DNA of 40,409 bases, from contig CAXTTL010000014.1 of the NCBI GenBank assembly GCA_964247135.1, forward strand, positions 1-40,409, read 5' to 3'. The first letter of the stretch is position 1. The number at the start of each line of letters is the position of its first letter. The stretch comes from an uncultured Deinococcales bacterium. Lineage in GTDB: Bacteria; Deinococcota; Deinococci; Deinococcales; JAAFIG01. The translations under genes were made by a program, and so were the position numbers. Below are positions 1 to 40,409 of this stretch, in pieces. A model generated the notes under the pieces. That model was not told where the DNA came from. It was given only the letters and a program-made list of their open reading frames with translations, and ran no database searches.

Positions 1-378
1 TAAACCGTTGGTCATGCCGACGGCTCGAGAGGCGGTCGGTTGCCCAAGTTTGGCTGCCACCTCGCCGTAAGAACGGGTTTGACCCGTCGGGATTTCTCGC
101 AGTTCAAGCCAGACTTTTTGCTGGAATTCTGTGCCGCCAGTGGAAACTGGAATGTCGTCCAGGGCGTCCAAATCGCCTGCAAAATACGCCTCGAGTTTTG
201 CACTGTAACCGAACGGATTTTTGGTATTCTCGAGTTGATAACTTCCAAATCGTTTCTCGAGGAGTTGCTTCATGCGGTGTTCATTGCCTTCAAAATCGAC
301 AAAGCATAAGTTTTGATTCTCGACCACCAAGATGACTTGCCCAATCGGGGTTTGGATCGTGTCAAACAAGAGTTTCAT
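1..378 (-). CDS. ogt: Methylated-DNA--protein-cysteine methyltransferase (partial, runs off the window start)
   Basis: Not in the ORF track. Manual translation from ATG at 378 (ATGA overlap with the adaA stop) gives MKLLFDTIQTPIGQVILVV...GTEFQQKVWLELREIPTGQTRSYGEVAAKLGQPTASRAVGMTNGL, carrying the classic Ogt GTxFQ/IPxG/SYGE/SRAVG motifs. Confidence 0.92.
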   Translation of the reverse strand, partial: MKLLFDTIQTPIGQVILVVENQNLCFVDFEGNEHRMKQLLEKRFGSYQLENTKNPFGYSAKLEAYFAGDLDALDDIPVSTGGTEFQQKVWLELREIPTGQTRSYGEVAAKLGQPTASRAVGMTNGL

Positions 379-953
379 GCTGCCCTCAATTCTGCACTGA
401 CTCGCGCCCGACGGTACTCGAGTGGTGATGTTCCCATAAAACGTTTGAAATTGGCGTTAAACGTGCTTAAAGATTGAAATCCAACCTCGAGCGCAATTTC
501 GCTGATGCTCGCGCCTTGATTGTCCAGGCGTTTGCAAGCATTTTGCACCCGAATGCGGTTGAGCATTTCGAGCGGGGTGATGCCACGGTGCGTTTTGAAG
601 AGTTTGTACAACCTCGAGACGCTGACGTTCGCGGCGTTTGCCATGTCGGTCACGTCCTCGAACATGTTGGGGTCATTGATTGCGTTTTGGGTTAAAGCCT
701 TCACGATGCGCTCTTCAATCTCGAGATTTGAAATTCCGTCGGGACGGCAGAGTTTGCAGGCTCTAAAACCAGCGTGTTTTGCCTCGAGTGGCGTGTTGAA
801 AAATTGCACGTTTTCGGCTTTGGGTTTGCGCGGTGGGCGGCACGATGGACGGCAGTAAATGCCCGTGGTTTTGACCGCCACCGTGAACAGATCGTCCAAA
901 CTCGAGTCACCCGAAAACATGGTTTGCAGCATTTGTATGCGGGAGAAGATCAT
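375..953 (-). CDS. adaA: Ada metal-binding domain + AraC HTH (methylphosphotriester alkyltransferase/activator, AdaA-like)
   Basis: AVKTTGIYCRPSC...GFRACKLCRP four-Cys Ada Zn site; C-terminal AraC motif SISEIALEVGFQSLSTFNANFKRFMGTSPLEYR; translationally coupled to ogt. Confidence 0.9.
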   Translation of the reverse strand: MIFSRIQMLQTMFSGDSSLDDLFTVAVKTTGIYCRPSCRPPRKPKAENVQFFNTPLEAKHAGFRACKLCRPDGISNLEIEERIVKALTQNAINDPNMFEDVTDMANAANVSVSRLYKLFKTHRGITPLEMLNRIRVQNACKRLDNQGASISEIALEVGFQSLSTFNANFKRFMGTSPLEYRRARVSAELRAA

Positions 954-1014
954 GGCTGTATTTTGAAGCTTTTTGCCTGGGAATGCTACCTGAATTTTGT
1001 TTGCTTATTCGGGT

Positions 1015-2109
1015 TTATTTCAGTCGCAACTCGAGCCAGTCTGCCACGTCCTGAATCGGTTGCGCGTCCATCGGGCGGAAGCGGTCATCGATCAGGCTGC
1101 GGGCTTCACCGAGCGAATGTCCAAGGTTTGGGTACAACTTGAGTGTATGAGCATTTTTCAAAGCCTTGTCCAAAGCCCGAGCACCGTCGGCGCTGGTGTT
1201 CGCATCGTTCTCGCCTTGCAATATCAGGGTTGGCGTCTCGAGTTTTGGGGCGAGTTGAATCAGTCCTGGCAGCGCAATTTCGCTGGCGTAAATGCCCAGA
1301 AAACTGTTGGGGTCATCACGAAACAATTCGTTAATAACGGGTTTGGCTTCGAGTTCGAGGTCAATGAAGCCATCATTATTTTTGTCCATAAAGCGATTGA
1401 GTTTGGGTTTGGCAACGGTCGATGTTTGATCGAGCAAATAATAGGCTTGTGATACCGCCACCAATCCACCGCCACCAAGCAGTGCCTTGACCACGCCTTG
1501 AATGTCGATCAAGCCATTTTTGGCAAATTGGGACAGGTACGGAATACCGACGCGTGGAAATTGTTGCTGGAAGGTTTGAGCATACGAATACGTCACCGTA
1601 CCCTGAACCATCAAGCCTTTGATGCTGGGATTCTCGAGCGCGAGTTGTGCGGCAATCGGTGAGCCTTCGCTCCAACCGTAAACAAAAATTTTGTTTGGGT
1701 CAATCAGTGCATTGCTTTGCAGGGCGTGCAATGCCACCCGAGCGTCCTCGAGAAAATCTTGAAGTTTCAAACCGTAATAGCGTGTCGCATCGAATTGCCC
1801 GGCGCCTGTTACATAGCGTTTGTTGTAGCGCAGAACCGCAAATCCACGTTGGCTCAAACCGTCAGAGAGTTGTTTGAAAATGCTCGAGACGCTTGCGCCT
1901 TGCCATTGCACGCTGGCGTTCATGTCCATCGGGGTTGAGCCGTGAATCAGGAGTACCCCAGGCAACGGAGCTTTTGGATTGCTGGGATAGGTCAGTTGGG
2001 CTTTGGACTGGAAATCTCCGAGTTGCAAGGTCAAATCTTGACTCGAGGCGCTTTGGGCGGCGGCAAAACTTTGAACAAAAATCAGGATGGCGAGCAGAAA
2101 TCGTTTCAT
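1015..2109 (-). CDS. Secreted alpha/beta-fold hydrolase
   Basis: Signal peptide MKRFLLAILIFVQSFAAA; HGS oxyanion motif, GWSEG nucleophile elbow, QGEND and LGH triad residues. Confidence 0.8.
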   Translation of the reverse strand: MKRFLLAILIFVQSFAAAQSASSQDLTLQLGDFQSKAQLTYPSNPKAPLPGVLLIHGSTPMDMNASVQWQGASVSSIFKQLSDGLSQRGFAVLRYNKRYVTGAGQFDATRYYGLKLQDFLEDARVALHALQSNALIDPNKIFVYGWSEGSPIAAQLALENPSIKGLMVQGTVTYSYAQTFQQQFPRVGIPYLSQFAKNGLIDIQGVVKALLGGGGLVAVSQAYYLLDQTSTVAKPKLNRFMDKNNDGFIDLELEAKPVINELFRDDPNSFLGIYASEIALPGLIQLAPKLETPTLILQGENDANTSADGARALDKALKNAHTLKLYPNLGHSLGEARSLIDDRFRPMDAQPIQDVADWLELRLK

Positions 2110-2139
2110 GCTGGTAGTTTGCGCTAGACTCTACTTCCA

Positions 2140-2793: not shown

Positions 2794-2806
2794 ACCACGC
2801 CTCGGG

Positions 2807-2835
2807 TTGACAATTAATGACTTTTCAGTTATTAT
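2807..2835 (+). promoter_or_regulatory. Sigma70-type promoter of tetR (leaderless), overlapped by a putative operator
   Basis: TTGACA (2807-2812), 17 bp, TATTAT (2830-2835), then 6 nt to the GTG start at 2842. Imperfect palindrome AATGACT-TTTC-AGTTATT lies in the spacer. Confidence 0.75.
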
Positions 2836-2841
2836 TTTTTT

Positions 2842-5284: not shown

Positions 5285-5309
5285 GCTCGAGACACCAAAA
5301 ATACTTTCG

Positions 5310-6853: not shown

Positions 6854-6870
6854 TTGACCATAAAACTCAC

Positions 6871-6981
6871 CTTTTTGATCCCAAGACGCACCTCACGGGC
6901 GGGATCGCTTTTTGATCCCAAGACGCACCTCACGGGCGGGATCGCTTCTTGGTTTCAAGATGCACCTCACGGGCGAAACCG
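6871..6981. repeat. 37-bp tandem repeat, 3 copies (2 identical, 1 diverged)
   Basis: CTTTTTGATCCCAAGACGCACCTCACGGGCGGGATCG at 6871 and 6908; CTTCTTGGTTTCAAGATGCACCTCACGGGCGAAACCG at 6945. Confidence 0.9.
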
Positions 6982-7098
6982 CTGTCGGGCATGATCGCTG
7001 TCCCAACAATTCTCCTTCCTGCTTATCCTTGAGATAACCCCGAACTTCTCGAGATTCCAAACTTGCCCCGCATCAACCCCTCCCCGTAGAATCCAACC

Positions 7099-8826: not shown

Positions 8827-8850
8827 AACTCGAGAATCTTTACCCAATCT

Positions 8851-8901
8851 TTACTGTGTGACTTCATAATTCGCCAGACTCACGCCAACATCGAACGTCC
8901 A
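8851..8901 (-). pseudogene. Displaced duplicate of the spoIID-like gene 3' end
   Basis: Reads WTFD-VGVSLANYEVTQ*, versus WTFDQILGYYYVGVSLANYEVTQ* at the end of the intact gene (stop at 9230). All substitutions are synonymous, plus a 21-bp deletion. Confidence 0.85.
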
Positions 8902-9169
8902 AGTTGAAGGTAGATTTTTGTTTTGGAAACGCAATTATTCACTTTTTAATATTGCTAAAGTTGATTTTCAGAAAGGTTTAGGCGATTTTGGTTTCGCATA
9001 TAATCTTAAATTTATTTATAAAGACGAAAATATAACGGCTGAATATCTTCCTGCTGGTTTTTTTGGAAACCATTACGATTTAAATAATTTTGTGGTTAAC
9101 CAGATTATTAAACTTAATCCTGGAGTTCAAATAGACCCACAAATTTTAAAAAGATACAATATCAAGTAG
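8902..9169 (+). pseudogene. AT-rich, 5'-truncated foreign gene fragment
   Basis: Markedly AT-rich and without CTCGAG. The frame is open back into the displaced spoIID tail, with no ATG or RBS. Confidence 0.55.
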
Positions 9170-9229
9170 TAAATTGTTTACGATACACCAAGGTTATCAA
9201 AAAATATTATTCAATGTCTCGAGTTTTTA

Positions 9230-11588: not shown

Positions 11589-11664
11589 TGGTGATCTCGA
11601 GGGGAATCGAACACCTATTCTCACGTCGAGAGCGTGAAGTCCTAAACCATTGGACGACAAGACC
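11589..11664 (-). tRNA. tRNA-Glu (CTC), atypical
   Basis: GGTCTTG/CGAGATC acceptor (two G-U pairs), TCACG-CTCTCGA-CGTGA anticodon arm, one T-stem mismatch, A-CCA end. Confidence 0.85.
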
Positions 11665-11665: not shown

Positions 11666-11740
11666 TGGCGGCTCTGGCGGGAATCGAACCCGCACCACTC
11701 GAGAGACAGTCGAGTATCCTAGCCATTGGAACACAGAGCC
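11666..11740 (-). tRNA. tRNA-Asp (GTC), atypical
   Basis: GGCTCTG/CAGAGCC acceptor, CTCGA-CTGTCTC-TCGAG anticodon arm, GCGGG-TTCGATT-CCCGC T-arm, G73 discriminator and CCA. Confidence 0.88.
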
Positions 11741-11908: not shown

Positions 11909-12121
11909 GGGACTCACCTCGAGGGCTACTGTACGGCTTGGCTCGAGACTTGACATTCGCCAAATGGCGTAGGCAAGCCCTGCAAACGTTCGTTATCTTT
12001 TTTTTGGTCTAACACTCATTGTAGCCCAAAAGGGCATGAAATAAAACCGTTGCCCAAGACTGATCTCGAGGGTAGACTTGAGGTTGTGTTGTTTGAAACC
12101 CTCAAGCCTTCAGGAGAAACC

Positions 12122-13600
12122 GTGACCCTAGCCTTTACTGATGACAAGCCGCATGATGAATGCGGCGTTTTCGGCGTGTACGCTCCAGGGCGCGACGTTG
12201 CCCGCCTGACGTTTTTCGGACTGTACGCCCTGCAACACCGTGGGCAGGAGGCGGCTGGAATTGCCACCAGCGACGGCAAAAGCGCGTATCTGCACAAAGA
12301 CGTGGGTTTGGTGTCGCAAGTTTTTAACGAAGCCAACATGAAACCCCTGATCGGTTCGCACGCCATCGGTCACAACCGTTACAGCACCACAGGCTCGAGC
12401 TTATTGCGCAACGCGCAACCGTTTCTGATTGAAACCATCGATGGACCGCTGGGCGTGTCGCACAACGGCAACCTCACCAACACCCTCGAGCTTCGTAAAA
12501 TGCTGCTCGAGCGCGGCGGTGGGCTGCAATCCACCAGCGACAGCGAAATCATGACGCTGATGCTGGCAGCGCCCGTCGATGCCTGGGCGGCACTCAAACC
12601 CAGCGATTCCAACCTCGACCGTTGGCAGCAGCGTATTCTGGGTTTGATGCGCGTTGCCAAAGGCGCGTACTCCCTCGCCATTCTGACCCGTGATGCGGTT
12701 TACGGCGCTCGAGACGCGAACGGTTTGCGCCCGCTCTGCCTTGGAAAGCTCGAGGGTGGTTACATGATCGCCTCCGAAACCAGTGCTTTGTTTACGATTG
12801 GCGCGGAGTTCGTGCGCGAAATCGAACCTGGCGAGATCATCAAAATTGATGCGCACGGCATCACCAGCATCAAACTCGAACACGATGCGCCTCGAGCCTT
12901 GTGCAGCTTCGAGTACGTGTACTTTGCCCGCCCAGATTCGGTCATGGAAGGACAAGTGATTCACGATGTGCGGCAACGCCTTGGGCGGCAACTGGCAAAA
13001 GAAGCGCCCGTGGTTGCCGATGTGGTGATTGCCGTACCCGATTCCGCCACACCGCACGGCATCGGTTTTGCGCTCGAGACAGGCATTCCGTACACCGAAG
13101 GTTTGATCAAAAACCGTTACATCGGACGCACGTTTATTCAACCCGACCAAAGCCTGCGCGAGCTTGGAATGCAACTGAAATACAACCCGCTTCGCGCCAA
13201 TCTCGAGGGCAAACGCATTGTGTTGGTCGATGACAGCATCGTGCGCGGCACAACTTCGGGACCGCTGGTGCAACTCGTGCGCGACGCTGGCGCGATTGAA
13301 GTTCACGTCCGCGTGGCAAGCCCGATGATCAAGCACCCGTGCTTCATGGGCGTGGACATGGCAACCTACGGGCAACTCATCGCGCACAACAAAACGCTCG
13401 AGGAAATTCGGGTTCATATCGGCGCCGACAGCCTCGCGTACCTTTCGGTGGACGGACTGAAAAGCGCCATCGGTGAAGGCTCGAGCATGAATCATGGGCA
13501 TTGCACCGCGTGTTTCTCGGGTGAATACCCCATCGACATTCCCGCCTGGTTGTTCGGTGACACTCGAGATCAAGCGCTGTTTGAGGGGAGCTTGACTTGA
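12122..13600 (+). CDS. purF: Amidophosphoribosyltransferase
   Basis: Propeptide + ECGVFG, LQHRGQEAAG, HNGNL, CSFEYVYFARPDS, VDDSIVRGTT. GTG 12122 follows AGGAG. Confidence 0.96.
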   Translation: MTLAFTDDKPHDECGVFGVYAPGRDVARLTFFGLYALQHRGQEAAGIATSDGKSAYLHKDVGLVSQVFNEANMKPLIGSHAIGHNRYSTTGSSLLRNAQPFLIETIDGPLGVSHNGNLTNTLELRKMLLERGGGLQSTSDSEIMTLMLAAPVDAWAALKPSDSNLDRWQQRILGLMRVAKGAYSLAILTRDAVYGARDANGLRPLCLGKLEGGYMIASETSALFTIGAEFVREIEPGEIIKIDAHGITSIKLEHDAPRALCSFEYVYFARPDSVMEGQVIHDVRQRLGRQLAKEAPVVADVVIAVPDSATPHGIGFALETGIPYTEGLIKNRYIGRTFIQPDQSLRELGMQLKYNPLRANLEGKRIVLVDDSIVRGTTSGPLVQLVRDAGAIEVHVRVASPMIKHPCFMGVDMATYGQLIAHNKTLEEIRVHIGADSLAYLSVDGLKSAIGEGSSMNHGHCTACFSGEYPIDIPAWLFGDTRDQALFEGSLT

Positions 13601-13615
13601 AGGGGAACGTTGCAC

Positions 13616-13643
13616 GTAGGGGCGCATGGCGATGCGCCCCTAC
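13616..13643. repeat. GTAG-family REP palindrome
   Basis: GTAGGGGCGCAT-GGCG-ATGCGCCCCTAC, perfect 12-bp stem between purF and purD. Confidence 0.8.
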
Positions 13644-13664
13644 AAAACACCTCGAGGGTGACGC

Positions 13665-15944
13665 GTGAAGGTGCTGGTCGTTGGTGGCGGCGGACGTGAA
13701 CATGCCATCGCCTGGAAGCTCGAGCAAAGCCCCAAAGTCACTCAGGTTTTTGTTGCCCCTGGAAACGCGGGAACGCATCCGAACAACGTCAATATCGCGG
13801 TGACTGAAATCGGGAAGTTACTCGAGTTTACAATTGAAAACCAGATCGATTTTGTGGTGATCGGTCCTGACGATCCGCTCGCGGCAGGCATCGTGGATGC
13901 GTTTACCTTGCGTGGTATTCGCACCTTTGGTCCAACCCAGAACGCGGCGAAACTCGAGTGGAGCAAGGCGTTTGCCAAAGAGATCATGCGTGAAGTTGGG
14001 GTGAAGAACGCTGAGGCTGGCGTGTTTGAAAACCTCGAGACTGCACTTTCTTTCGTGCGTTCCAACCCGTTCTCGAGTCCTGGTTTTGTGGTCAAAGCCG
14101 ATGGTTTGGCGCTCGGTAAAGGCGTGATCGTTTGTGATGATTTAAACGGTGCTGAACAGGCGCTCGAGCGAATTTTTGCTGGGGAATTTGGCGAGGCTGG
14201 CGGCACGGTGTTGATCGAAGAACGCATGAGAGGACCCGAACTCAGCGTGCTGGCGTTCGTGGATGGCAAGACCGTGAAACTGATGCCTGCCGCTCGAGAT
14301 CACAAACGCATTTTTGATGGTGACATGGGCGCGAACACGGGCGGTATGGGCGCGTTCGCCCCAGTGCCAGAGATTTCTACGGCAACACTCGAGGAGATCA
14401 AAACCACGATCCTCGAGCCTGTGGTGCGCGGCATGAACGCCAGGGGAATTCCGTATAAGGGTGTGCTTTACGCGGGTTTGATGTTGACGCCGAACGGCAT
14501 TCGGGTGATCGAGTTTAATTCCCGTTTTGGTGATCCCGAAACCCAAGTGATCTTGCCATTGCTCGAGACAGATTTGCTCGAGGTTTTTGAAGCTTGCGTT
14601 GATGGAACGCTGTCAAATCTCGAGATCAAATGGAAGTCTGGCGCGTGTGCGACGGTGGTGGCTGCAAGTCCAGGGTATCCAGGGAATTACCCCAAAGGAC
14701 TCGAGATTTCAGGACTCGAGCATCAATCTGAAAACGCGCTGATTTTTCACGCGGGAACAAAACTCGAGGCTGAAAAAACCGTGACCAACGGCGGAAGGGT
14801 TCTCAACGTTACAGGCGTTGGTGAAAACCTCGAACAAGCATTGAAGAACGCCTACACTGCCCTCGAGTTTGTGAAATTTGATGGAATGCAGTTTCGTCGT
14901 GACATTGGAAAAACCGTGCCGACTGTGGGTTCTTACGCCTCGAGCGGCGTGAACATTGCCGAGGGAATTCGAGCCGTGCAACTCATGAAAGACGCGGTGA
15001 AAAGCACGCATGATGCTCGGGTTTTGGCGGGTGTGGGCGCGTTTGGTGGGATGTTTGATGCAAGTGCTTTAAAGAACCTCGAGACGCCTGTTTTGGTCGC
15101 CAGCACGGACGGCGTGGGCACAAAAACCAAAATTGCGGCGAAGCTTAACCTTTGGGACGGTATCGGTGCAGACATTGTCAATCACGGGATCAATGACATT
15201 TTGGTGCAGGGTGCAAAGCCACTGTTTTTCATGGATTACATCGCTGCCAGCAAATTGAGCGCGGAATTGGTGGCACGAATTGTCTCGAGCATGGCACAAG
15301 CGTGCAAAGCCGCGAATTGCGTGCTGCTCGGCGGCGAAACCGCAGAAATGCCGAACGTGTATCTCGAGGGTGAGCTTGATGTCGCGGGAACAATTGTCGG
15401 CGTGGTGGACCTTCAAAACGCGGTTGACGGCTCGAGTATTGCCGTGGGCGATGCAATTCTGGCGTTCCCTTCAAGCGGCTTGCACACGAATGGTTATTCA
15501 CTGGCGCGTAAAGTCCTCGAGCAACAAAATTGGTCTGAAGCCCGTGCCGATTTGAACGGCGCAAGTATCGGGCAGGCGCTCCTCGAGCCGCACAGGTCGT
15601 ATTTGGATCATGTCTCAAGTTTGCAAGCTGTTGGAATTGGTATTCACGGTATGGCGCACATCACGGGTGGAGGTTTGTGGGACAACGTGCCTCGGGTTCT
15701 CCCTGAAACTGTGAGCGCCGTTTTCACTCGAGGTTCGTGGGTTGCCCCACCAATTTTTAAATTGATTGCCACCTTGGGCGCAATTGACGAGCGTGAACTT
15801 TTTCACGCGTTCAACATGGGCATTGGTTTTATTGCCGTTGTTCCTCGAGAAGATGCACAAAGAGCCTTGGAGCTACTGCCAGATGAATGTTATTTGGTGG
15901 GTGAAATTCAAGCTCGAGCGACAGAAGCGGTGGTGTTGGTCTAA
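13665..15944 (+). CDS. purD: Fused phosphoribosylamine-glycine ligase / AIR synthase (PurD-PurM)
   Basis: N-terminal half: MKVLVVGGGGREHA, KADGLALGKGV, EFNSRFGDPETQ. C-terminal half: SYASSGVNI, STDGVGTK, GGETAEMP, SSGLHTNGYSL, AHITGGG. One uninterrupted 759-aa frame. Confidence 0.95.
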   Translation: MKVLVVGGGGREHAIAWKLEQSPKVTQVFVAPGNAGTHPNNVNIAVTEIGKLLEFTIENQIDFVVIGPDDPLAAGIVDAFTLRGIRTFGPTQNAAKLEWSKAFAKEIMREVGVKNAEAGVFENLETALSFVRSNPFSSPGFVVKADGLALGKGVIVCDDLNGAEQALERIFAGEFGEAGGTVLIEERMRGPELSVLAFVDGKTVKLMPAARDHKRIFDGDMGANTGGMGAFAPVPEISTATLEEIKTTILEPVVRGMNARGIPYKGVLYAGLMLTPNGIRVIEFNSRFGDPETQVILPLLETDLLEVFEACVDGTLSNLEIKWKSGACATVVAASPGYPGNYPKGLEISGLEHQSENALIFHAGTKLEAEKTVTNGGRVLNVTGVGENLEQALKNAYTALEFVKFDGMQFRRDIGKTVPTVGSYASSGVNIAEGIRAVQLMKDAVKSTHDARVLAGVGAFGGMFDASALKNLETPVLVASTDGVGTKTKIAAKLNLWDGIGADIVNHGINDILVQGAKPLFFMDYIAASKLSAELVARIVSSMAQACKAANCVLLGGETAEMPNVYLEGELDVAGTIVGVVDLQNAVDGSSIAVGDAILAFPSSGLHTNGYSLARKVLEQQNWSEARADLNGASIGQALLEPHRSYLDHVSSLQAVGIGIHGMAHITGGGLWDNVPRVLPETVSAVFTRGSWVAPPIFKLIATLGAIDERELFHAFNMGIGFIAVVPREDAQRALELLPDECYLVGEIQARATEAVVLV

Positions 15945-15947
15945 ACC

Positions 15948-15976
15948 GTAGGGGATGGTCTGAGACCATCCCCTAC
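15948..15976. repeat. GTAG-family REP palindrome
   Basis: GTAGGGGATGGTC-TGA-GACCATCCCCTAC. Confidence 0.8.
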
Positions 15977-15984
15977 AACAAATA

Positions 15985-16013
15985 TTGCTTAATTGGCTAA
16001 TCTTAGCTAAGAT
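15985..16013 (+). promoter_or_regulatory. vapBC promoter with palindromic operator
   Basis: TTGCTT, 17 bp, TAAGAT; the spacer contains TTGGCTAA-TC-TTAGCTAA. Confidence 0.6.
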
Positions 16014-16031
16014 GATTTTTGAGGTGAGATC

Positions 16032-16331
16032 ATGCCCAGAACACTCGAGAAACCAAAAACCAGAATCGTCAACATGCACGAAGCCAAAACCAACCTCTCC
16101 AAGCTGGTCGAAGCTGTCGAAAACGGCGAGAGTATTGTGATTGCACGAAATGGAAAACCGGCTGTTCAACTTTCCAAGCTCGAGCAGAAAGCTTTTACAT
16201 GGTCAGCCAAGATGCTCAAACATTTGAAAAAACGCAATCCCAATGCGCATCTCGAGCCTGATCCATTTCCAAAGATTCAAGAAAAAGACGACTTCCGTGA
16301 TCCTTTCGCGGAAAAAGAGCCTCATCAATAA
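16032..16331 (+). CDS. Phd/YefM family antitoxin
   Basis: VNMHEAKTNLSKLVEAVENGESIVIARNGKPAVQL; RBS GAGGTG. Confidence 0.9.
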   Translation: MPRTLEKPKTRIVNMHEAKTNLSKLVEAVENGESIVIARNGKPAVQLSKLEQKAFTWSAKMLKHLKKRNPNAHLEPDPFPKIQEKDDFRDPFAEKEPHQ

Positions 16332-16738
16332 TGCGGTATTTACTCGATACAGACATCATCAGTTTGTATGCCCGTGAACATGATGCGGTCAGTGAACGCT
16401 TAACGCAGCAAACGCTGGATTCTTTGGCGGTCAGCAGCCTGAGCTTGATGGAAATAGAGTTTGGTTTTGCCAGAAATCCTGCCAGCCGTCGTAAATTTGG
16501 CACACGGGTTTTTGATTTGATTGCAGAAATCACTGTTGTCCCGTTCGCAGATGTTGAAGCGAGAAGCAGCGCAGTCATTCGCGCAGGGCTTGAACGCACA
16601 GGGCAGATCATTGGGAAATACGATGTCTTGATTGCCGCCACCGCACTGGCAAACGGTCTTGTGATGGTCACAGCGAACACCCGAGAATACTCGAGAGTCC
16701 CTGGTTTGCACGTTGAAGATTGGAGTTCGCCCGAATGA
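16331..16738 (+). CDS. vapC: VapC PIN-domain toxin
   Basis: YLLDTDII, EIEFG, IGKYDVLIAATA, VTANTREYSRVPGLHVEDW. Confidence 0.92.
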   Translation: MRYLLDTDIISLYAREHDAVSERLTQQTLDSLAVSSLSLMEIEFGFARNPASRRKFGTRVFDLIAEITVVPFADVEARSSAVIRAGLERTGQIIGKYDVLIAATALANGLVMVTANTREYSRVPGLHVEDWSSPE

Positions 16739-18105
16739 GTTTAAGCAGTATTTCCCCCATCGATGGTCGTTACGAAAACGCCACCGGCAGCCTGTCCGAA
16801 GTGCTGTCCGAACATGCGCTCATGAAGTACCGCGTCAAAGTCGAACTCGAGTGGTTGCGTTACCTGGCAAATTCCAAACTCGAGGGGATTCGCGCCATCT
16901 CGAGCGAGGAAAATGCGTTTCTTGACGGGTGGTTGGCATCGTATTCGCTCGAGGATTCGGATTGGATCAAGCACATTGAACGCACCACCAAGCACGATGT
17001 CAAAGCCGTCGAGTATTACATCCGCGAGAAATTGCAAGTCTCGAGTTTGATCGAACTGGGCGAGTTTGTGCATTTTGCGTGCACCAGCGAGGACATCAAC
17101 AATTTGGCGTATGCCATGATGCTGCGCGATGCGGTCAAAAACCATTGGTTGCCTGCCGCGCAGAACATGGTGAATGCCGTCTCGGGTTTGGCGGTAAACA
17201 CCCGCAGCCTGCCAATGATGGCGCGAACCCACGGGCAGCCCGCCTCACCGACCACTTTGGGCAAAGAATTGGCGGTCTTTGTCTACCGTTGGCAGCGCCA
17301 ATTAAAGCAAATCGCCAGCCTCGAGTATTTGGGGAAGTTCGCGGGTGCGGTTGGAAATTTTAATGCGCACACCAGCGCGTATCCTGACGCGAATTGGCGT
17401 GAATTGGCTCGGGATTTTGTCGAGAACACATTGGGTTTGACGTTCAATCCGCTGACCACGCAGATCGAATCGCACGATTACATTGCCGAATTGTTTCATG
17501 CCACGGCGCGTTTTAACCAAATCGCGCTGGGTTTCGCCCAAGATGTCTGGCAGTACATTTCTGTGGGTTATTTCAAGCAACGTGTGATCGCTGGCGAGGT
17601 AGGCTCGAGCACCATGCCGCACAAGGTCAATCCAATTGACTTCGAGAATGCCGAAGCCAATTTTGGGCTGGCGAACGCGACCCTCAATCACCTCGCATCA
17701 AAATTGCAAATCTCGAGGTTGCAACGTGATCTTTCAGACTCGAGCGCACTGCGAAACGTGGGTGTTGGCATCGCGCACGGCATGATTGCGCTCTCGAGTT
17801 TGAATCGTGGCATTGGCAAGCTTGAGGTCAATGAACCCGCCATTCATGCCGACCTCGAGCATGAATGGGCGTTGTTGGCTGAACCCGTGCAAACTGTTAT
17901 GCGCAAGTACAACCTCAAAGGCGGGTACGAACGCATGAAAGATTTAACACGCGGCGAAACCGTGACCGAAGCCATCATGCACGAGTTCATTCAAAGCCTC
18001 GAGATACCAGAAAACGACAAAAAACGCTTGCTCGAGTTGCGCCCAGAAACCTATGTTGGTCTGGCGGATGGTCTGGTGGATGTGATTCTCGAGGATAAGG
18101 CATGA
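16735..18105 (+). CDS. purB: Adenylosuccinate lyase (E. coli-like type)
   Basis: SPIDGRY, TKHDVKAVEY, HFACTSEDINN, RTHGQPA, GSSTMPHKVNPIDFEN. ATG 16735 overlaps the vapC stop. Confidence 0.96.
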   Translation: MSLSSISPIDGRYENATGSLSEVLSEHALMKYRVKVELEWLRYLANSKLEGIRAISSEENAFLDGWLASYSLEDSDWIKHIERTTKHDVKAVEYYIREKLQVSSLIELGEFVHFACTSEDINNLAYAMMLRDAVKNHWLPAAQNMVNAVSGLAVNTRSLPMMARTHGQPASPTTLGKELAVFVYRWQRQLKQIASLEYLGKFAGAVGNFNAHTSAYPDANWRELARDFVENTLGLTFNPLTTQIESHDYIAELFHATARFNQIALGFAQDVWQYISVGYFKQRVIAGEVGSSTMPHKVNPIDFENAEANFGLANATLNHLASKLQISRLQRDLSDSSALRNVGVGIAHGMIALSSLNRGIGKLEVNEPAIHADLEHEWALLAEPVQTVMRKYNLKGGYERMKDLTRGETVTEAIMHEFIQSLEIPENDKKRLLELRPETYVGLADGLVDVILEDKA

Positions 18106-18731: not shown

Positions 18732-18766
18732 AGACGAACTGAGAGTCGTCATTGTTAAGGAGAAAA

Positions 18767-22399: not shown

Positions 22400-22406
22400 C
22401 GAATTC

Positions 22407-22432
22407 GTAGGGGCGAACCTTGTGTTCGCCCT
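22407..22432 (+). repeat. GTAG-family REP palindrome
   Basis: GTAGGGGCGAAC-CTTGT-GTTCGCCCT between purL and purC. Confidence 0.8.
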
Positions 22433-22476
22433 TTGCACATGTCGATTCATTTCAACACATCCGAAGAGGTCAACCA

Positions 22477-23519: not shown

Positions 23520-24059
23520 TCAGAAGCGGAAGGTCAGCCCCGTACCCAGCCCAAAACTTCCGGCGAATCCAACCACAAATTTGCCGTACAAATTGATGTC
23601 TCTCGAGAGGCGGAAATCGGCACCAAAGTCGAGCGACCCTGAAATGCCAGGCACCACAATCAACGCCAGGTTGGTAAATAAGTTAATGCTGGAGGTCACA
23701 AAATAATGAACCCCGCTGACAAAGCCAAAAATAAAAGCTGTGCCGCCGCCGCTGGCAATGCCGAGGTTAAAGCCAAAAAACACGTCGCCTTTGGGGTCGA
23801 ACTCAATGTTCAAGGTTGGTCCGACGCTGAGTAAAAAACTCACGCCGTTGGTAAACCCGATGATAAAGGTACCGTTTAACCCAAGGCTGAGGCTCGAGGA
23901 AAACCTTGCCAGTTCTTTGCCCTGAACGTTTGCATCGATGGCGAATCCCACGCCTGGGGCGAGGGTCAGTTGTGGACCAAAGCGCACCGTGAAATTTTGG
24001 GCGTTTGCAAAGCTCGAGAAGCCAACGATTGCCAGGAAAACGATTAGGAACTTTCTCAT
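23520..24059 (-). CDS. Small outer-membrane beta-barrel protein
   Basis: Signal peptide, alternating Gly/aromatic strands, terminal TFRF; RBS GGAGGA. Confidence 0.7.
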   Translation of the reverse strand: MRKFLIVFLAIVGFSSFANAQNFTVRFGPQLTLAPGVGFAIDANVQGKELARFSSSLSLGLNGTFIIGFTNGVSFLLSVGPTLNIEFDPKGDVFFGFNLGIASGGGTAFIFGFVSGVHYFVTSSINLFTNLALIVVPGISGSLDFGADFRLSRDINLYGKFVVGFAGSFGLGTGLTFRF

Positions 24060-24241
24060 ATGATCCTCCTTCTTGGATTTATCGCCAACAGAATACCCCA
24101 AGTTTGTGGTTTTGGTTGCAATAACTTCAATTTTGTTGAGCCTCAGCCGTAAAGCCTTGTTTTCAAGCCATAAAACGACGCGTGTTTTGCAACTTGTGTT
24201 ATCCTGCTTTTGCAGTGAATTCCATGACCTGGGAGGTCAAA

Positions 24242-24697
24242 ATGAAGCTTAAGAAATTGCTCATCGGTCTGATCGCGTTTTTGATGTTCGCCTCGCCTTC
24301 TTTCGCGCAGTCTTTCGGTATTCGTCTGGGTTATCCCATTGGTATTCAATACAGCAGTGCAAACCCTGGCAATCAAGGCACTGGTTTCCGTATCGCGCTC
24401 GAATCGTTCTTTTTTGCCAACATTGGCATCCAAGGCGATTTGATGCTTGGTCAAATTGAACTGACCAAAAACGCCCCTCTCACTTTGTTTTATGGTGTGG
24501 GTCTTCACGCGGGTCTTGGTTTCGCGGGCAGTTATTTCTATGTTGGACCTCAAGGTACCATTGGTCTTGAATACCTGTTGCAACCAAGCATTTCCTTGTT
24601 CCTCGATTGGAGTCTTGGTTTGGACCTTCAATTTGGACTTGGTAACCTGATTGGTTTTTATTACGGCGGGGCGTTCGGTATCAGTTTCAAGGTCTAG
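24242..24697 (+). CDS. Small outer-membrane beta-barrel protein
   Basis: Signal peptide ending FA-Q, GIRLGYPIGI, YGVGLHAG, GTIGLEY, GGAFGISFKV; RBS GGAGG. Confidence 0.7.
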   Translation: MKLKKLLIGLIAFLMFASPSFAQSFGIRLGYPIGIQYSSANPGNQGTGFRIALESFFFANIGIQGDLMLGQIELTKNAPLTLFYGVGLHAGLGFAGSYFYVGPQGTIGLEYLLQPSISLFLDWSLGLDLQFGLGNLIGFYYGGAFGISFKV

Positions 24698-24717
24698 GTT
24701 TCAAACCCATCAATCAC

Positions 24718-24745
24718 GGGCGGCTTTGTGCCGCCCTTTTCTTTT
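24718..24745 (+). terminator. Intrinsic terminator
   Basis: GGGCGGC-tttgt-GCCGCCC followed by TTTTCTTTT. Confidence 0.8.
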
Positions 24746-24782
24746 GCGGCAAAGCCGAAATTCTCGAGCTAGAATAAACCCG

Positions 24783-25826
24783 ATGATCTTGCGCAGTTTG
24801 CAAACCTTAAATTACCGTCATCTCGAGGCTGGCAAACTCGAGTTTCCGCTGGGTTTGATCGCGGTGGTGGGTGGGAACGCGCAGGGCAAAACCAATTTGC
24901 TCGAGGCGGCGTTTGTTTGCCTCACGGGGGTGCTCGAGGTGAGCAGGGTCGAAACCGTGATTCGGCTCGGTGAACACGAGGCGTTTGTCGGGGCGGAACT
25001 CGAGCGTGAGGATGGTATCAGCAAGCTCGAGGTGGGCTTGGCGAAGGGCAAGAAGTTGGCGAAGGTTGACGGCGTGCGGGTCAAAACGGCTGATCTGGCG
25101 CGTTATGCCTCGGCGGTGCTGATTCGTCCCGAGGATGCGGATTTGGTGCATGGTTCACCGTCTGGACGGCGGGCGTTTTTGGATGCGCTCGTCTCGAGAA
25201 TGTCGCCACGTTACGCTCAAGCACTTGTTTTATACGAACGGACTTTGGCGCAACGCAACGCGGCGTTAAAAGTTGGCGGCGTGGGTTTGGAAGTCTGGGA
25301 TTCGCGGTTTGCAGAGTTGGGCGCGGAAATCATGCGGTTGCGGCGACGTGCGGTTAACAAACTCAAAACCTTGACCGAAACCGCGCACACCAACTTGGCG
25401 GGCAACAGCAAAAAACTCGAGTTGAACCTTCTCGAAACCGCCCGACTCGAGGATTTTCACGCGCATTTGAATGAAAAACGCCGTGAGGAATTGGCTCGAG
25501 GCTCAAGCGCGATTGGACCGCACCGCGACGACCTCGAGATTCGATTGGGGAACGTGTCTGCGCTCGATTATGCTTCCCGGGGTGAAGCCCGAACCATTGC
25601 CCTGGCGATGCGCAAAGCCGAATTTGATTTGCTCAGCGAAAAATTTGGTGAAGCCCCAGTGCTTTTGATTGACGATTTCAGCGCCGAACTCGACGCGCAC
25701 CGCCGTCAATTCTTGCTCGAGCTTGCCTCAAGCGTGCCGCAGGCGATTGTGACCGGTACGGAAGCGCCCGACCAAGCCAGCAAGTTGTTCAAGATCGAAA
25801 ATGGCAAACTCGAGGTTCAATCATGA
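24783..25826 (+). CDS. recF: DNA replication/repair protein RecF
   Basis: NYRHL, GGNAQGKTNLLEA, GSPSGRRAFLD, GPHRDD, ASRGEART, LLIDDFSAELD. TAGAAT 7 nt before ATG 24783. Confidence 0.95.
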   Translation: MILRSLQTLNYRHLEAGKLEFPLGLIAVVGGNAQGKTNLLEAAFVCLTGVLEVSRVETVIRLGEHEAFVGAELEREDGISKLEVGLAKGKKLAKVDGVRVKTADLARYASAVLIRPEDADLVHGSPSGRRAFLDALVSRMSPRYAQALVLYERTLAQRNAALKVGGVGLEVWDSRFAELGAEIMRLRRRAVNKLKTLTETAHTNLAGNSKKLELNLLETARLEDFHAHLNEKRREELARGSSAIGPHRDDLEIRLGNVSALDYASRGEARTIALAMRKAEFDLLSEKFGEAPVLLIDDFSAELDAHRRQFLLELASSVPQAIVTGTEAPDQASKLFKIENGKLEVQS

Positions 25827-29762: not shown

Positions 29763-30134
29763 TGGTGGAAGCGGAGGGGGTCGAACCCTCGTCCAAAAAC
29801 CCGTCCAACGGGTGTCTACAAGCTTAGCCTTCGTTTTGATGTCGCACCCGAACGCTCCCAAAGGCAGGATTTCTCGAGCACCAACCCCATTTATTTCGCG
29901 TCTCGGTATGGGGTGTTCTGGACGCTAGCAGTCTTTAGTTAAGCGGGTTAAAAACCAACTGCTGGGTTTTTAAGCGGCTTTCGCTGGGATTAAGCAGCGA
30001 GAAGATTTGCTTCAGAGTTGAAGCTAAGAACATTGTTGCCAGTTAAGGCTTTGGTGGAATATTTTCGAGGCCAACCACCATCCTCGGCTTGCAACCACAT
30101 CTTCAATGATCCCTGTCGAAACCAATACGCTCCC
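29763..30134 (-). ncRNA. ssrA: tmRNA
   Basis: 5' GGGAGCG..GGTTTCGACAGGG; 3' GGACGAGGGTTCGACCCCCTCCGCTTCCACCA with G3-U70; tag ORF GNNVLSFNSEANLLAA* follows TAACT. Confidence 0.95.
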
Positions 30135-31989: not shown

Positions 31990-32097
31990 CCCCTGCCGTA
32001 AGACAATGAATTCTCGAGCGTCCAGAATTTGCTTTTTGGATGCCATCTTGTTTAGAGTGTAATTTGATATACAAAAGATTCAAGGGAGGAATCAAAG

Positions 32098-32499
32098 ATG
32101 CTCGAAGGATTTAAGAATTTTCTGTTACGCGGTAATGTTGTTGACTTGGCGGTCGGTGTCATTATCGGCGCTGCGTTCGGCGCGGTTGTGGATTCGTTGG
32201 TCAAAGATGTCATCACACCATTGATTGGTATGATTGGCGGTCAACCAGATTTCAGCTCAATTTGCTTGGGCACAGTCAATGTTGTTAAGGGCGTAAATGT
32301 GTGTGCTGGCGTTGGCATCGGTAGTTTCATCAACGCTATTATCGGATTTATCATCAAGGCGGCAGCCGTGTACTTTATCGTGGTTGTTCCTATGAACGCC
32401 GCAATGGCACGCATGAAAAAACCAGAAGCACTCGCCGTTCCAGCCGGTCCTACCCAGGAAGAACTCTTGGTTCAAATCCGCGACCTTTTGAAAAAGTAA
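32098..32499 (+). CDS. mscL: Large-conductance mechanosensitive channel
   Basis: FKNFLLRGNVVDLAVGVIIGAAFG...LLVQIRDLL. Confidence 0.97.
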   Translation: MLEGFKNFLLRGNVVDLAVGVIIGAAFGAVVDSLVKDVITPLIGMIGGQPDFSSICLGTVNVVKGVNVCAGVGIGSFINAIIGFIIKAAAVYFIVVVPMNAAMARMKKPEALAVPAGPTQEELLVQIRDLLKK

Positions 32500-32515
32500 A
32501 CCCGTCGACACATCA

Positions 32516-32542
32516 AACCTCGAGCCTGATCCGCTCGAGGTT
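32516..32542. terminator. Hairpin between convergent mscL and alkA, built from two CTCGAG sites
   Basis: AACCTCGAGC-ctgatcc-GCTCGAGGTT. Confidence 0.6.
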
Positions 32543-36039: not shown

Positions 36040-36903
36040 ATGAGCAGCAACATTCTCAGAGCGATGGTCAATATTGCGGCTCGAGATCAATTTTTACTCG
36101 CCCACGAAGAACAAAACCAAAATCGTATCAACCGCCTTGGCGAAAAACTCGAGGTGTTTGTTCAGCAGGCGTTTGCAGGTGTTTTTGAAACGCAAACTGA
36201 ACTCGAGTTGGCACAACAAACGCAAAGTATTTTTTCGTATGTTGGAAACAATTCAAATCCACCAGACTTGATTTTAAGCGGCGGTGATGCAATTGAAATT
36301 AAAAAAATGGAATCATTGAAATCTGCCATTAAACTCAACAGTTCGTATCCAAAAAGCCATTTACATAGTGATTCAACCCTTTTAACCCAAGCTTGTCGCA
36401 ATTGCGAATCGGATATTTGGCAAATCAAAGACATGGTATACGTTATCGGTTCGGTAAAGGATAAAGTCTTAAAACAATTGTGGTTTGTTGATGGTGCTTG
36501 TTACGCTGCAAGCCGTGACGTATATGAACAGGTTTTCGCACGAATTTATGGTGCAGTACGTGGAGCAAAACACGTTACATTTACAAAATCTCGAGAATTT
36601 GCACGAGTTGTTAAAATTGACCCACTTGAGCGAACAGTTTTGCGAGTTCGTGCAATGTGGGAAATTCAACATCCAAGCAAAGCTTTTCAAGATTTGCTTG
36701 GTCAAAAACCAACGAAGAACTTTCGGATGTTGGCAATTTTGCGCGAATCAAAGTATCAACAGATTTTGAGTTCTGACCCAAACCTCGAGCCTGAACTTGA
36801 TCGTTTAAGCATCCAGAGAACACCCGCACAGGTGCTCGATCCAAACAACAAAGCCAAGCTCTTGGACGTTCGGTTTGTGGAGTACGAGGCAAATCATGCC
36901 TGA
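36040..36903 (+). CDS. Type II restriction endonuclease, NgoPII family (GGCC)
   Basis: FSYVGNNSNPPDLIL.GGDAIEIKK, LNSSYPKS, IDPL.RT.LRVRAMWEIQHP, motifs I recognise from R.NgoPII. Confidence 0.85.
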   Translation: MSSNILRAMVNIAARDQFLLAHEEQNQNRINRLGEKLEVFVQQAFAGVFETQTELELAQQTQSIFSYVGNNSNPPDLILSGGDAIEIKKMESLKSAIKLNSSYPKSHLHSDSTLLTQACRNCESDIWQIKDMVYVIGSVKDKVLKQLWFVDGACYAASRDVYEQVFARIYGAVRGAKHVTFTKSREFARVVKIDPLERTVLRVRAMWEIQHPSKAFQDLLGQKPTKNFRMLAILRESKYQQILSSDPNLEPELDRLSIQRTPAQVLDPNNKAKLLDVRFVEYEANHA

Positions 36904-37936
36904 GCCATCACTGATATCTTTATTTTCTGGCGCAGGTGGTTTGGATTTGGGTTTCCACCAGGCAGGATTTCAAACCATTTGGGCGAACGAATATGACAAA
37001 CAAATCTGGATAACCTTCCAAAAGAACTTCCCGAATGTCAGATTGGACAAAAGAAGCATTACAGCCATCAACATTGAAGAAATACCCAACGTGGACGGCT
37101 TAATTGGGGGTCCACCGTGCCAAAGTTGGTCTGAGGCGGGTGCGGGGCGCGGCTTTGACGATGCTCGAGGTCAGTTGTTTCATGAGTATATTCGTGTTCT
37201 CAAAGCAAAAAAACCACGTTTTTTCGTTGCCGAAAATGTTTCTGGGATTTTGCATCAAAAGCATAGGAAAAGTGTAGAAGGCTTTATGAATGATTTTCAG
37301 CAAGCTGGCTATCACGTTTCTATTATTGCCGTAAATGCCTGTGATTATGGTGTAGCCCAGGAACGCGAGCGGGTTTTTTTTATTGGCTATCATGTTGATA
37401 CTGGAAAAACATTTCAAATGCCACAAAAACAAAACAATAAACCATTACTTCGAGATGTAATTGAAGATTTACAACACAGCGCCCAACCTGCGCTCGAGAA
37501 GAATTACGCCAATGAAAATCTAGAAATACCCAACCATGAATACTGGATTGGCGATTACTCGAGTCATTACATGTCCCGCAACCGTGTGCGAAGCTGGTCT
37601 GAGCCTTCTTTTACCATTCAAGCCAGTGGGCGACACGCCCCAATGCACCCTCAAGCGCCCCGCATGGAATTTGTCGAACGTGATTTGTTTCGTTTTGTCC
37701 CAGGTCAGGAACACTTGTACCGACGTTTAACGATACGTGAAGCCGCTCGAGTTCAAAGTTTTCCAGATGATTTTGTGTTTTTGTATCGTAACCTTGCCGA
37801 CGGCTACAAAATGGTCGGGAATGCTGTACCACCATTGCTGGCGCAACAAATTGCATTGCAAATTCGTGCCGATTTGTTTGAACCAACCGCAATGATTGCA
37901 CCACAAAGAAATTTGAGCCAAGAGCCATTATTTTGA
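36896..37936 (+). CDS. C5-cytosine DNA methyltransferase, M.HaeIII/M.NgoPII-like (GGCC)
   Basis: SLFSGAGG, GGPPCQSWS, ENV, QERERV, target-recognition region MSRNRVRSW...QASGR...HPQAP, GNAVPP. Confidence 0.92.
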   Translation: MPEPSLISLFSGAGGLDLGFHQAGFQTIWANEYDKQIWITFQKNFPNVRLDKRSITAINIEEIPNVDGLIGGPPCQSWSEAGAGRGFDDARGQLFHEYIRVLKAKKPRFFVAENVSGILHQKHRKSVEGFMNDFQQAGYHVSIIAVNACDYGVAQERERVFFIGYHVDTGKTFQMPQKQNNKPLLRDVIEDLQHSAQPALEKNYANENLEIPNHEYWIGDYSSHYMSRNRVRSWSEPSFTIQASGRHAPMHPQAPRMEFVERDLFRFVPGQEHLYRRLTIREAARVQSFPDDFVFLYRNLADGYKMVGNAVPPLLAQQIALQIRADLFEPTAMIAPQRNLSQEPLF

Positions 37937-37999
37937 GCATTTGCCATAAAGTTTGATCTCGAGATGTGAAAGATTGCTTCAACGCTCGAGATGCGCGTT

Positions 38000-39157: not shown

Positions 39158-39175
39158 GACTGTCTTATTTTAACG

Positions 39176-40408
39176 TTACTTTTTGCGCCCTGCGGTCAAA
39201 ACCTTGGTGAGGGTTTCAAAACCAGCCTCGTCACCACTGGCAAGAAGCGCCGCCTGTTCCGCCCAGGTGCTCAAACTGGCGGGTTTTCGCAAGCCTGCCT
39301 CAAGCAAAATTTTCTCCAGTTTGACGGGTTTGGCTTTGCCGAGTTGCGCGAAGGTTTTGATTCCTGCCTCGAGCAAGGCGCTGGCGAATTTCGGTCCGAT
39401 GCCTTCGATACGCTCGAGGTTGTCAAGGGTGTTTTTGGGTTTGGTGGGAGAGGGCGCAGTAAGCGACCCAAGCCCGTCAGGTGCTGTTTTAGGGTCAAGA
39501 AGCAGCGCCCCTACGGTTTTTGTTGTTTTGGGTGTACTCGAGGGTTTTGTTGCGGTCTTTTTTGGTTTGGGTTTGGTGTTTTGTAGGGGCGCTGCTTGCT
39601 GCGCCCTGACAGTTTTGGCGGTTTTCAACGTGGGTGTTGTGGCGGTTTTTTGGGTTTTGGTTTTCACCGTTTTACCAGCAACCGTTTTCGCTCGAGATGC
39701 CTTTTTAACATTCATCAAAAGCTCGAGTTTGTACCCTGTTTTTTTCGCGCCATTTTTGAGGCTGGCGGCAAGTTTGGTAAACGTTTTTTCAGCTTCAAGA
39801 AATGAGGCAATACTGAGCGCATCATCAAGTGTTTTCTCGAGTTGCGCTTGACCCAAATAGGTTGTGCCTTCGTAGGTGTTCAAACCCAGGGCATTGCTCG
39901 CGTCTGAATCGGCAGTCCAGGCACCCAGCAGCGCCTCGAGTGTGCTGGGTTTGGTCAGGCTCTCCTGGGTTGAAACCAAGAATTTCAGGCGTTGCACGGC
40001 ATTCCAGGCTTCGTCGTGACTCGAGCCGAGTTCGCTGAAGGTGCGTTCGATGCTGGCGGCGAGCAAGTATTCGCTAAGCCAGACTCGAGATTGGGCTGGC
40101 GTGCTTGCCAAACCTTTGGTCAGAATCCAAGCGATGGTCATGGGTTGCGGGATTTTGAGTTTCTCCAGGTTTGATCGCACGGTTTTGGCATAGGTTGTGC
40201 CGTCCAAGTCCGATCCCGCAAAAACTTCGATGCCGTCTGTAACAGCTTTAGCTTTCATCTCGAGTTCGCCAAAAAAGAGTTTGGAGGGTTTGTCCATCAA
40301 TGCCTTAAACGTTGCGGCGTTCATCAGGGCGTTCCAGGGCGTCAAAATCGGCTCGAGGTACAATTCGCGCGTGGCTTGTTCAATGCTGTACACGCCGCGC
40401 CCACCGAG
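39176..40408 (-). CDS. C-terminal part of a large protein with a Lys/Thr-rich linker and terminal helix-hairpin-helix domain (partial)
   Basis: Frame open to the window end (LGGRGVYSIEQ...); C-terminal DNLERIEGIGPKFASALLEAGIKTFAQL HhH/DUF4332-like motif. Confidence 0.75.
   Translation of the reverse strand, partial: LGGRGVYSIEQATRELYLEPILTPWNALMNAATFKALMDKPSKLFFGELEMKAKAVTDGIEVFAGSDLDGTTYAKTVRSNLEKLKIPQPMTIAWILTKGLASTPAQSRVWLSEYLLAASIERTFSELGSSHDEAWNAVQRLKFLVSTQESLTKPSTLEALLGAWTADSDASNALGLNTYEGTTYLGQAQLEKTLDDALSIASFLEAEKTFTKLAASLKNGAKKTGYKLELLMNVKKASRAKTVAGKTVKTKTQKTATTPTLKTAKTVRAQQAAPLQNTKPKPKKTATKPSSTPKTTKTVGALLLDPKTAPDGLGSLTAPSPTKPKNTLDNLERIEGIGPKFASALLEAGIKTFAQLGKAKPVKLEKILLEAGLRKPASLSTWAEQAALLASGDEAGFETLTKVLTAGRKK
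39451..39607. repeat. Cluster of GTAG-REP copies inside a CDS linker
   Basis: Exact 25-mer at 39583-39607 (+), degenerate inverted copy at 39491-39514, more degenerate copy at about 39451-39469. Confidence 0.8.
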
Positions 40409-40409
40409 C

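Follow-up and report, generated by a model that had tools for sequence, protein, structure and literature searches.

CTCGAG as a highly iterated palindrome in an uncultured family of Deinococcales

HIP1 (GCGATCGC), the highly iterated palindrome (HIP) of cyanobacteria, has been without a proven function for about three decades. The other short motifs to which such a word may be compared are the DNA uptake sequences (DUS) of Neisseria and the uptake signal sequences (USS) of the Pasteurellaceae, asymmetric words of 9-12 bases that occur about once per kilobase (kb) and whose preferential uptake has been shown experimentally. In the available parts of two reports, HIP1 and the alternate HIPs are described as short GC-rich palindromes, tens-fold over-represented, present in all reading frames and between genes, conserved beyond neutral expectation, and shared across the lineage at graded abundance while other palindromes are avoided (PMC4390886; PMC5861425). 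Motifs of the HIP1 type are known just from cyanobacteria in the literature searched. This article describes the hexamer CTCGAG in a stretch of 40,409 bases from an uncultured Deinococcales bacterium (contig CAXTTL010000014.1, hereafter the window), and then in the genome, family and order to which this stretch belongs. In an uncultured Deinococcales family, CTCGAG proves to be a highly iterated palindrome, and particular attention is paid here to how its abundance, conservation and spread bear on the force that maintains it.

The window, contig C14 of the assembly called G000 here (5,091,702 bases in 386 contigs, the longest of 116 kb, 52.7% GC, 84% complete), carries 320 copies of CTCGAG, or one per 126 bases. 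One hundred dinucleotide-preserving shuffles give 6.85 ± 2.68 copies and never more than 14, so the excess is 47-fold. A first-pass annotation, made from the letters of the window, had called the over-representation extreme after counting 21 sites in the first 2.4 kb; exactly 21 start at or before base 2,400, and the excess turns out to be stronger than was claimed. Throughout the genome there are 33,925 copies, one per 150 bases or 6,660 per megabase (Mb), for an observed-to-expected ratio (O/E) of 24.8 relative to base composition. This makes CTCGAG the commonest hexamer of the genome, covering about 4% of all bases.

The excess belongs to this exact word. Genome-wide, the one-base variants of CTCGAG have an O/E of just 0.5-1.8, TCGA lying outside the hexamer stands at expectation (20,685 versus 19,754), and the information in the flanks never exceeds 0.07 bits per position. 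No hairpin extension or longer palindrome was found around the sites, and the eight-base palindromic extension is slightly rarer than flank frequencies predict. These counts rule out a longer motif or hairpin; a dispersed repeat is likewise rejected because the flanks are random, and no repeat family is present. The unit is therefore the bare duplex hexamer, and no part of a longer repeat. The first-pass annotation had also named a full account by four- and five-base frequencies as something that would refute the enrichment. Second- and third-order Markov models fall well short of the observed number, predicting 2,351 and 9,841 copies, but the constituent-word comparison itself is circular, since 88% of CTCGA and 62-65% of CTCG and TCGA fall within CTCGAG.

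Could the hexamer simply reflect the proteins that the genome encodes? Genes were predicted with a simple purpose-made caller (4,392 genes, 84% coding), and the density of sites is the same in both compartments, at 6.66 per kb in coding and 6.67 per kb in non-coding DNA, although the latter has a GC content of just 45.8%. By frame, 17,884 sites read CTC-GAG (Leu-Glu), 4,109 read xCT-CGA-Gxx, 6,502 read xxC-TCG-AGx, and 5,463 are non-coding; in intergenic DNA trimmed by 40 bases at each end (46% GC), 2,941 sites are found where 114 are expected. Shuffling synonymous codons within genes leaves excesses of 5.8-, 15.5- and 11.5-fold in the three frames, and this control is conservative because it retains the inflated use of CTC, GAG, CGA and TCG. 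The earlier statements that sites occur in all frames and between genes, and that a bias in the Leu-Glu codon pair would not suffice to explain them, are both borne out by these figures.

CTCGAG has in fact altered the proteome. No dipeptide is more over-represented than Leu-Glu (O/E 2.36, against 1.01 for Glu-Leu), and 77.5% of Leu-Glu pairs are encoded by CTCGAG, compared with 4.9% expected from context-free codon use. One gene of the window illustrates this well:

24651..25823, plus strand: recF, with 14 sites, 11 of them read as Leu-Glu.

When these 11 positions are compared with seven orthologues from outside the family, seven have Leu-Glu in none of them, one has it in a single orthologue, two have it in at least six, and one is unaligned. 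In total, Leu-Glu occurs 13 times in RecF of this genome versus 4 times in the Thermus orthologue. The force thus overrides not only the choice among synonymous codons but also, at tolerant positions, the amino-acid sequence.

The sites are also kept in place over time. The main comparison rests on 236 kb aligned to a species of the same genus at 85% identity, where 691 of 848, 165 of 238 and 273 of 334 sites are retained in the three frames, as are 200 of 262 in non-coding DNA. This retention of 69-82% contrasts with 39-45% for other hexamers of the same classes, and smaller alignments with five relatives agree on site conservation. Divergence at every one of the six positions is about 5% in non-coding DNA, against a background of about 15% (estimated from hexamer conservation), and no single cytosine shows a surplus of C-to-T decay. 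The same protection is seen at the level of codons: at positions with an unchanged amino acid, codons that form part of the motif are retained more often than those that do not, for CTC (91.5% versus 56.3%), GAG (92.4% versus 70.5%), CGA (84.7% versus 52.5%) and TCG (95.1% versus 68.9%). The force therefore acts on the DNA sequence itself, keeping sites in place and protecting all six positions. In a 14.9-kb alignment of four near-equidistant species, 161 site positions comprise 69 present in all, 46 missing from one, 22 present in two and 24 in one; each species has 113-128 sites, so the number of sites is at equilibrium.

Along the genome the sites are laid out in a nearly even fashion. Spacing is close to geometric with a mean of 148 bases, distances below 18 bases are depleted, and no adjacent copies exist, because adjacency would create GAGCTC. 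Every contig carries at least 2.6 sites per kb, long gaps are rare, and the longest gap measures 2,644 bases, the longest gaps being mostly AT-rich stretches. In the window the sites are spread over genes, spacers and RNA genes, with 0-13.2 per kb in individual genes. Those reported earlier inside tRNA and tmRNA genes are indeed there:

11596..11601, unstranded: CTCGAG in tRNA-Glu(CTC), spanning the 3' T-stem and acceptor stem.
11698..11703, unstranded: CTCGAG in tRNA-Asp(GTC), in the anticodon arm.
29873..29878, unstranded: CTCGAG in the tmRNA gene (29763-30134), the sole site in that gene.

Taken together, tRNA genes have 10 sites in 5.1 kb, which is under the genome average and over chance. 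The first-pass annotation had moreover singled out an AT-rich scar, a beta-barrel gene and mscL as devoid of sites:

8829-9218, 24013-24763 and 32013-32519: the site-free gaps so named.
24019..24762, unstranded: the longest site-free gap of the window (750 bases), over an open reading frame of 171 amino acids and within the chance range.

All three gaps exist, but they are no longer than chance would make them, as the window has 12 gaps of at least 389 bases against about 15 expected (an estimate from the mean spacing of 126 bases).

Across genes the density is flat, save for a peak right after stop codons. In about 158 of 3,005 genes (~5%) a site starts exactly 5 bases after the first base of the stop codon, versus about 35 at neighbouring offsets; this holds for TAA and TGA, and a site almost never follows TAG in this way. 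In general, the flanks prefer TGA, TCA or TAA at positions -5 to -3, where GAG is depleted, and flanks and site together make up a weak 16-base palindrome, TSA NN CTCGAG NN TSA. This general preference accounts in part for the post-stop peak.

How far does the enrichment extend? Counts were made over 151 genomes of the order, with group names below the family level inferred and hence putative. In its own family, all 19 genomes have 4.3-6.8 sites per kb and almost no GAGCTC. Several genera of another family in the order reach 1.5-2.6 per kb, and putative Meiothermus- and Calidithermus-like genera 1.4-3.4 per kb with a low reversed-word control, while the 22 genomes of a putative Thermus-like genus are at 0.6-1.1 per kb, the same as that control. 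The level of enrichment is therefore graded across the order. At the other end, a putative Deinococcus-like genus avoids the hexamer: each of its 35 genomes has at most 942 copies (0.01-0.27 per kb), and yet no XhoI-family nuclease is found there. Avoidance in that genus and enrichment here imply opposite pressures on one hexamer in sister lineages. Named loci give the same picture, with an O/E of 27-30 in the family, 4-13 in 17 Thermaceae-type loci, 1.5 in Thermus, and 0-4.8 in 57 loci from other phyla. The similar enrichment in Meiothermus that the first-pass annotation mentioned is thus supported. The nearest named matches of RecF are metagenome-assembled genomes called "Deinococcales bacterium" (89-95% identical), followed by Calidithermus and Meiothermus (41-46%), and the same enrichment is seen in five named metagenome-assembled genomes that bear different isolate labels.

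What, then, keeps so short a word in so many places? The best reading is that CTCGAG would be kept by a weak, hexamer-specific directional force, either selection or biased conversion during DNA exchange. From the 15-50-fold excess over one-base neighbours and a 3-6-fold slower loss (0.16-0.34 of neutral), we infer a per-site advantage of about 2-3 Ne·s (effective population size times selection coefficient), or an equivalent conversion bias, under mutation-drift balance. The likeliest mechanism, put forward tentatively, is that CTCGAG would be the recognition site of a host protein involved in DNA exchange or recombinational repair, following the drive logic of uptake sequences. A dimeric protein would recognize the hexamer and act genome-wide on one of these processes; alleles or fragments bearing sites would then be preferentially taken up, recombined or retained; and the outcome, in a lineage that is competent and probably polyploid, would be a molecular drive of the kind for which a case has been made with uptake sequences and, lately, with HIP1. 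In the parts of these sources that are available, HIP1 is said to improve transformation (bioRxiv 10.1101/2024.09.10.611283) and to correlate with DNA-uptake genes (PMC13756078). The competence genes ComEC and DprA are present in the genome but do not discriminate, since most control genomes carry both.

A number of points weigh against recognition by an exchange protein. No receptor or binding protein has been pinpointed, and a bias in uptake or recombination stands as a proposal. Known uptake signals are non-palindromic, 9-12 bases long and found about once per kb, and a hexamer is much less specific than these; Thermus and Deinococcus are described as taking up DNA irrespective of its sequence. 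The sequence statistics would look no different under selection for a structural role. A six-base palindrome that is the classical XhoI restriction site would, by analogy, point to a methyltransferase or a nuclease, and every family genome does carry further methyltransferases, which in G000 are type I, MmeI-like, C36 and C112 enzymes. Finally, k-mer binning may have dropped site-poor islands or contigs from metagenome-assembled genomes, in which case the spread may look more even than it is.

Methylation-linked repair, Elhai's model for HIPs, is the first alternative. Here, a CTCGAG-specific orphan methyltransferase would mark the site and repair would resolve mismatches toward the methylatable sequence, through a methyl-directed or very-short-patch activity, so that the creation and retention of sites would be a by-product. 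For HIP1 and the alternate HIPs this model leads the field in the part of the literature consulted (PMC4390886), and enzymes of the required specificity exist, as with the 5-methylcytosine (m5C) methyltransferase described for Halorubrum in an excerpt of PMC8112702. Within the order, XhoI-family nucleases (PF04555) adjoin PF01555 methyltransferases in 6 of 151 genomes, and the sites show a weak preference for a preceding G and a following C. The model would also suit a genome otherwise strongly shaped by restriction-modification: 28 of the 64 palindromic hexamers have an O/E below 0.1 in G000, which has 380 copies of GGCC (O/E 0.016), no GAGCTC, 11 CCGCGG, CCSGG at an O/E of 0.07, and no GCGGCCGC. 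However, the methyltransferases of G000 that have nuclease neighbours fit precisely these missing words:

Window 36040-37933: NgoPII-family nuclease and m5C methyltransferase, fitting GGCC, in a low-GC island (42-44%).
G000, C320 (L173): SacI-family nuclease and D12-class methyltransferase, fitting GAGCTC.
G000, C178 (L090): Eco29kI-family nuclease and m5C methyltransferase, fitting CCGCGG.
G000, C189 (L084): MvaI/BcnI-family nuclease and PF01555 methyltransferase, fitting CCSGG.
G000, C207 (L086): NotI-like nuclease and PF01555 methyltransferase, fitting GCGGCCGC/CGGCCG.

Judging by gene content, the absence of the other palindromes is explained by these restriction-modification genes. The members of the SacI-type pair share 83% and 72% identity across two genera, and closer relatives of the pair (at least 46% identical) were found in 7 of 19 family genomes. 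As a cause of the enrichment the SacI-family nuclease was rejected, since in the order-wide search it tracks low GAGCTC and not high CTCGAG. The sister genome G005 has a D12-class methyltransferase about 1.6 kb past the point where its alignment with the window stops, which suggests that it and the NgoPII-type pair of the window occupy the same slot, a swapping hot spot.

A shared orphan methyltransferase of XhoI/TaqI type, whose co-occurrence with the enrichment the first-pass annotation had suggested checking, did not appear. Searches covered five Pfam families in G000, PF01555 across the family, and four families in five chosen genomes. No methyltransferase orthologue is common to G000, G005, G009 and the single-contig G011 (PF01555, PF00145, PF07669, PF02384 and PF02086); in G011, PF01555 gave no match whatsoever, the m5C enzymes share just 26-35% identity with one another, and the C189 methyltransferase is strain-specific in the order-wide protein search. 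G128, which is 99% complete and has 3.4 sites per kb, is essentially without the four methyltransferase families checked, with no match to PF00145, PF07669 or PF02086 and only 21 bits to PF02384. XhoI-family nucleases were found in none of the 19 family genomes, the six in the order lying outside the enriched family, and the methyltransferases beside them are just 25-28% identical to the nearest G000 gene. Order-wide searches found Vsr in none and MutH in 2 of the 19 family genomes, neither being associated with enrichment. Furthermore, the six positions are equally protected, which argues against repair acting at one methylated base. The methylation branch of the mechanisms first suggested has thus lost support, as far as gene content can indicate, and this content gives no sign that CTCGAG methylation is needed. 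Given the further methyltransferases and the 84% completeness of G000, methylation of the site is a possibility, albeit an unsupported one, and methylation-linked repair as the maintaining force seems unlikely.

A second alternative is that an abundant nucleoid or chromosome-organizing protein binds CTCGAG, with tiny per-site benefits adding up to a strength like that of codon bias. The size of the inferred advantage is that of weak selection; the even spacing and the repulsion below ~18 bases look as if they came from a footprint; and the weak symmetric flanks suggest contacts over ~16 bases. A chromosome-level role has been argued for HIP1 by Xu et al., to judge from an excerpt (PMC5861425). 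Nevertheless, there is no known candidate protein, and a structural role leaves the avoidance of CTCGAG in the sister genus unexplained. It too would be a rather improbable account.

It is more doubtful still that CTCGAG is actively written, a methylation-independent, sequence-specific conversion turning near-matches, and even four-base mismatches, into the exact hexamer, in what would amount to a motif drive across the genomes of polyploid Deinococcota prone to recombination. The idea comes from hints in the polarized gains, beginning with a site aligned to sister species:

17604..17609, plus strand: CTCGAG in the catalytic-loop codons (Gly-Ser-Ser) of purB, adenylosuccinate lyase.

This site arose in the present lineage through four synonymous changes, which include the switch of a serine codon from TCC to AGC; three sister species retain other codons, and the flanks are nearly unchanged. 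Two of three clean single-lineage gains took 3 and 4 changes, whereas at least three changes are seen in 2.9% of control hexamers (n=6,206). Gains and losses were polarized on a multi-species alignment of ~15-27 kb, small for multi-base gains, and three clean gains are too few to separate stepwise fixation from a concerted event.

Very unlikely, in turn, is a self-mark for defence or degradation with a Chi-like logic, whereby CTCGAG-dense DNA would be spared and site-poor incoming DNA degraded. The 25-fold contrast in density with foreign DNA would permit such discrimination, the longest site-free gaps are mostly AT-rich and foreign-looking, and the lineage invests heavily in restriction. On the other hand, no system has been pinpointed, and known Chi sites are asymmetric and strand-oriented. 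The viral contigs with three clustered sites, among the matches listed, are GC-rich with many GGCC, unlike this family, and carry little information here. As for the view that no special force exists, the sites being due to base composition, to biased codons or dipeptides, to a dispersed repeat or to faulty assembly, it is refuted: although the largest share of sites reads Leu-Glu and codon use by itself takes GC-rich genomes of other phyla to an O/E of ~4, sites are as dense in non-coding as in coding DNA, the excess over codon shuffles is 6-15-fold, non-coding sites are conserved, flanks are random, and the eighteen family relatives share the enrichment, as do the five differently labelled genomes.

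Two further features of the window may be recorded. At ~6860-7000 stand three tandem copies of a ~37-base unit that is also dispersed, in about 20 copies elsewhere in this genome and many more among its sisters, and which looks like a repetitive extragenic palindrome (REP)- or miniature inverted-repeat transposable element (MITE)-like family. The purine-synthesis cluster at 12050-23424 includes fused genes for PurD-PurM (759 amino acids) and PurL-PurQ (1,215 amino acids).

In the literature searched, which left subscription journals and supplements aside, no report describes CTCGAG as hyper-abundant or mentions HIP-like motifs for Deinococcota; methylome supplements for Meiothermus and Deinococcus, lying outside that search, could bear on the claim of novelty. 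An independent case is of help to a field in which HIP1 still awaits its function, all the more since relatives ranging from strong enrichment to avoidance allow methyl-directed repair, an uptake or recombination tag and chromosome structure to be compared, and cultured relatives sharing the enrichment (Meiothermus, Calidithermus) make experiments feasible. This example also reveals how strongly proteins can be distorted by a motif at the DNA level, a point of relevance to codon models, alignments and the k-mer binning of metagenomes.

Among known systems, XhoI/PaeR7I restriction-modification shares the recognition sequence itself. It differs in that no XhoI-family nuclease with an adjacent methyltransferase was found in the family, and in that a resident restriction system normally depletes its own site, as the other palindromes of G000 show, while CTCGAG is enriched. 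The Dcm/Vsr system of Escherichia coli is alike in that biased repair could make a palindromic methylation site, there CCWGG, more frequent. Its effect is small and acts at the methylated cytosine alone, unlike the 25-fold excess and the protection of six positions seen here, and the Vsr/MutH repertoire of the family is not that of a repair product. DUS and USS are likewise family-wide and genome-wide, including tolerant gene positions, with ComEC and DprA present here too, and they are thought to be kept by a transformation-linked drive whose logic the proposal for CTCGAG shares. They are defined, however, as asymmetric words occurring about once per kb, often with inverted pairs in terminators, whereas CTCGAG, a palindrome of six bases, occurs 6.7 times per kb, lacks a hairpin extension and shows only a modest post-stop peak.

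The closest likeness is to HIP1. The analogy drawn by the first-pass annotation, whose interpretation is partly supported overall, holds on every sequence-level feature tested, namely abundance, frames, conservation, spread and the avoidance of other palindromes: CTCGAG has an excess of at least ~15-fold, occurs in all frames and in non-coding DNA, and is conserved at its sites and shared throughout the lineage. HIP1 is a cyanobacterial octamer of another sequence, and CTCGAG a hexamer of Deinococcales, for which the distortion of the proteome toward Leu-Glu has been measured. HIP1 and the alternate HIPs usually come with a cognate orphan methyltransferase, in the portions of the reports available, while for CTCGAG none shared by the enriched genomes compared was found in the five families searched. 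At 6,660 copies per Mb, where 300-2,700 are given for HIP1 in the accessible part of PMC4390886, CTCGAG provides an independent second example of highly iterated palindromes, in another phylum, with a shorter sequence and at the highest density yet.

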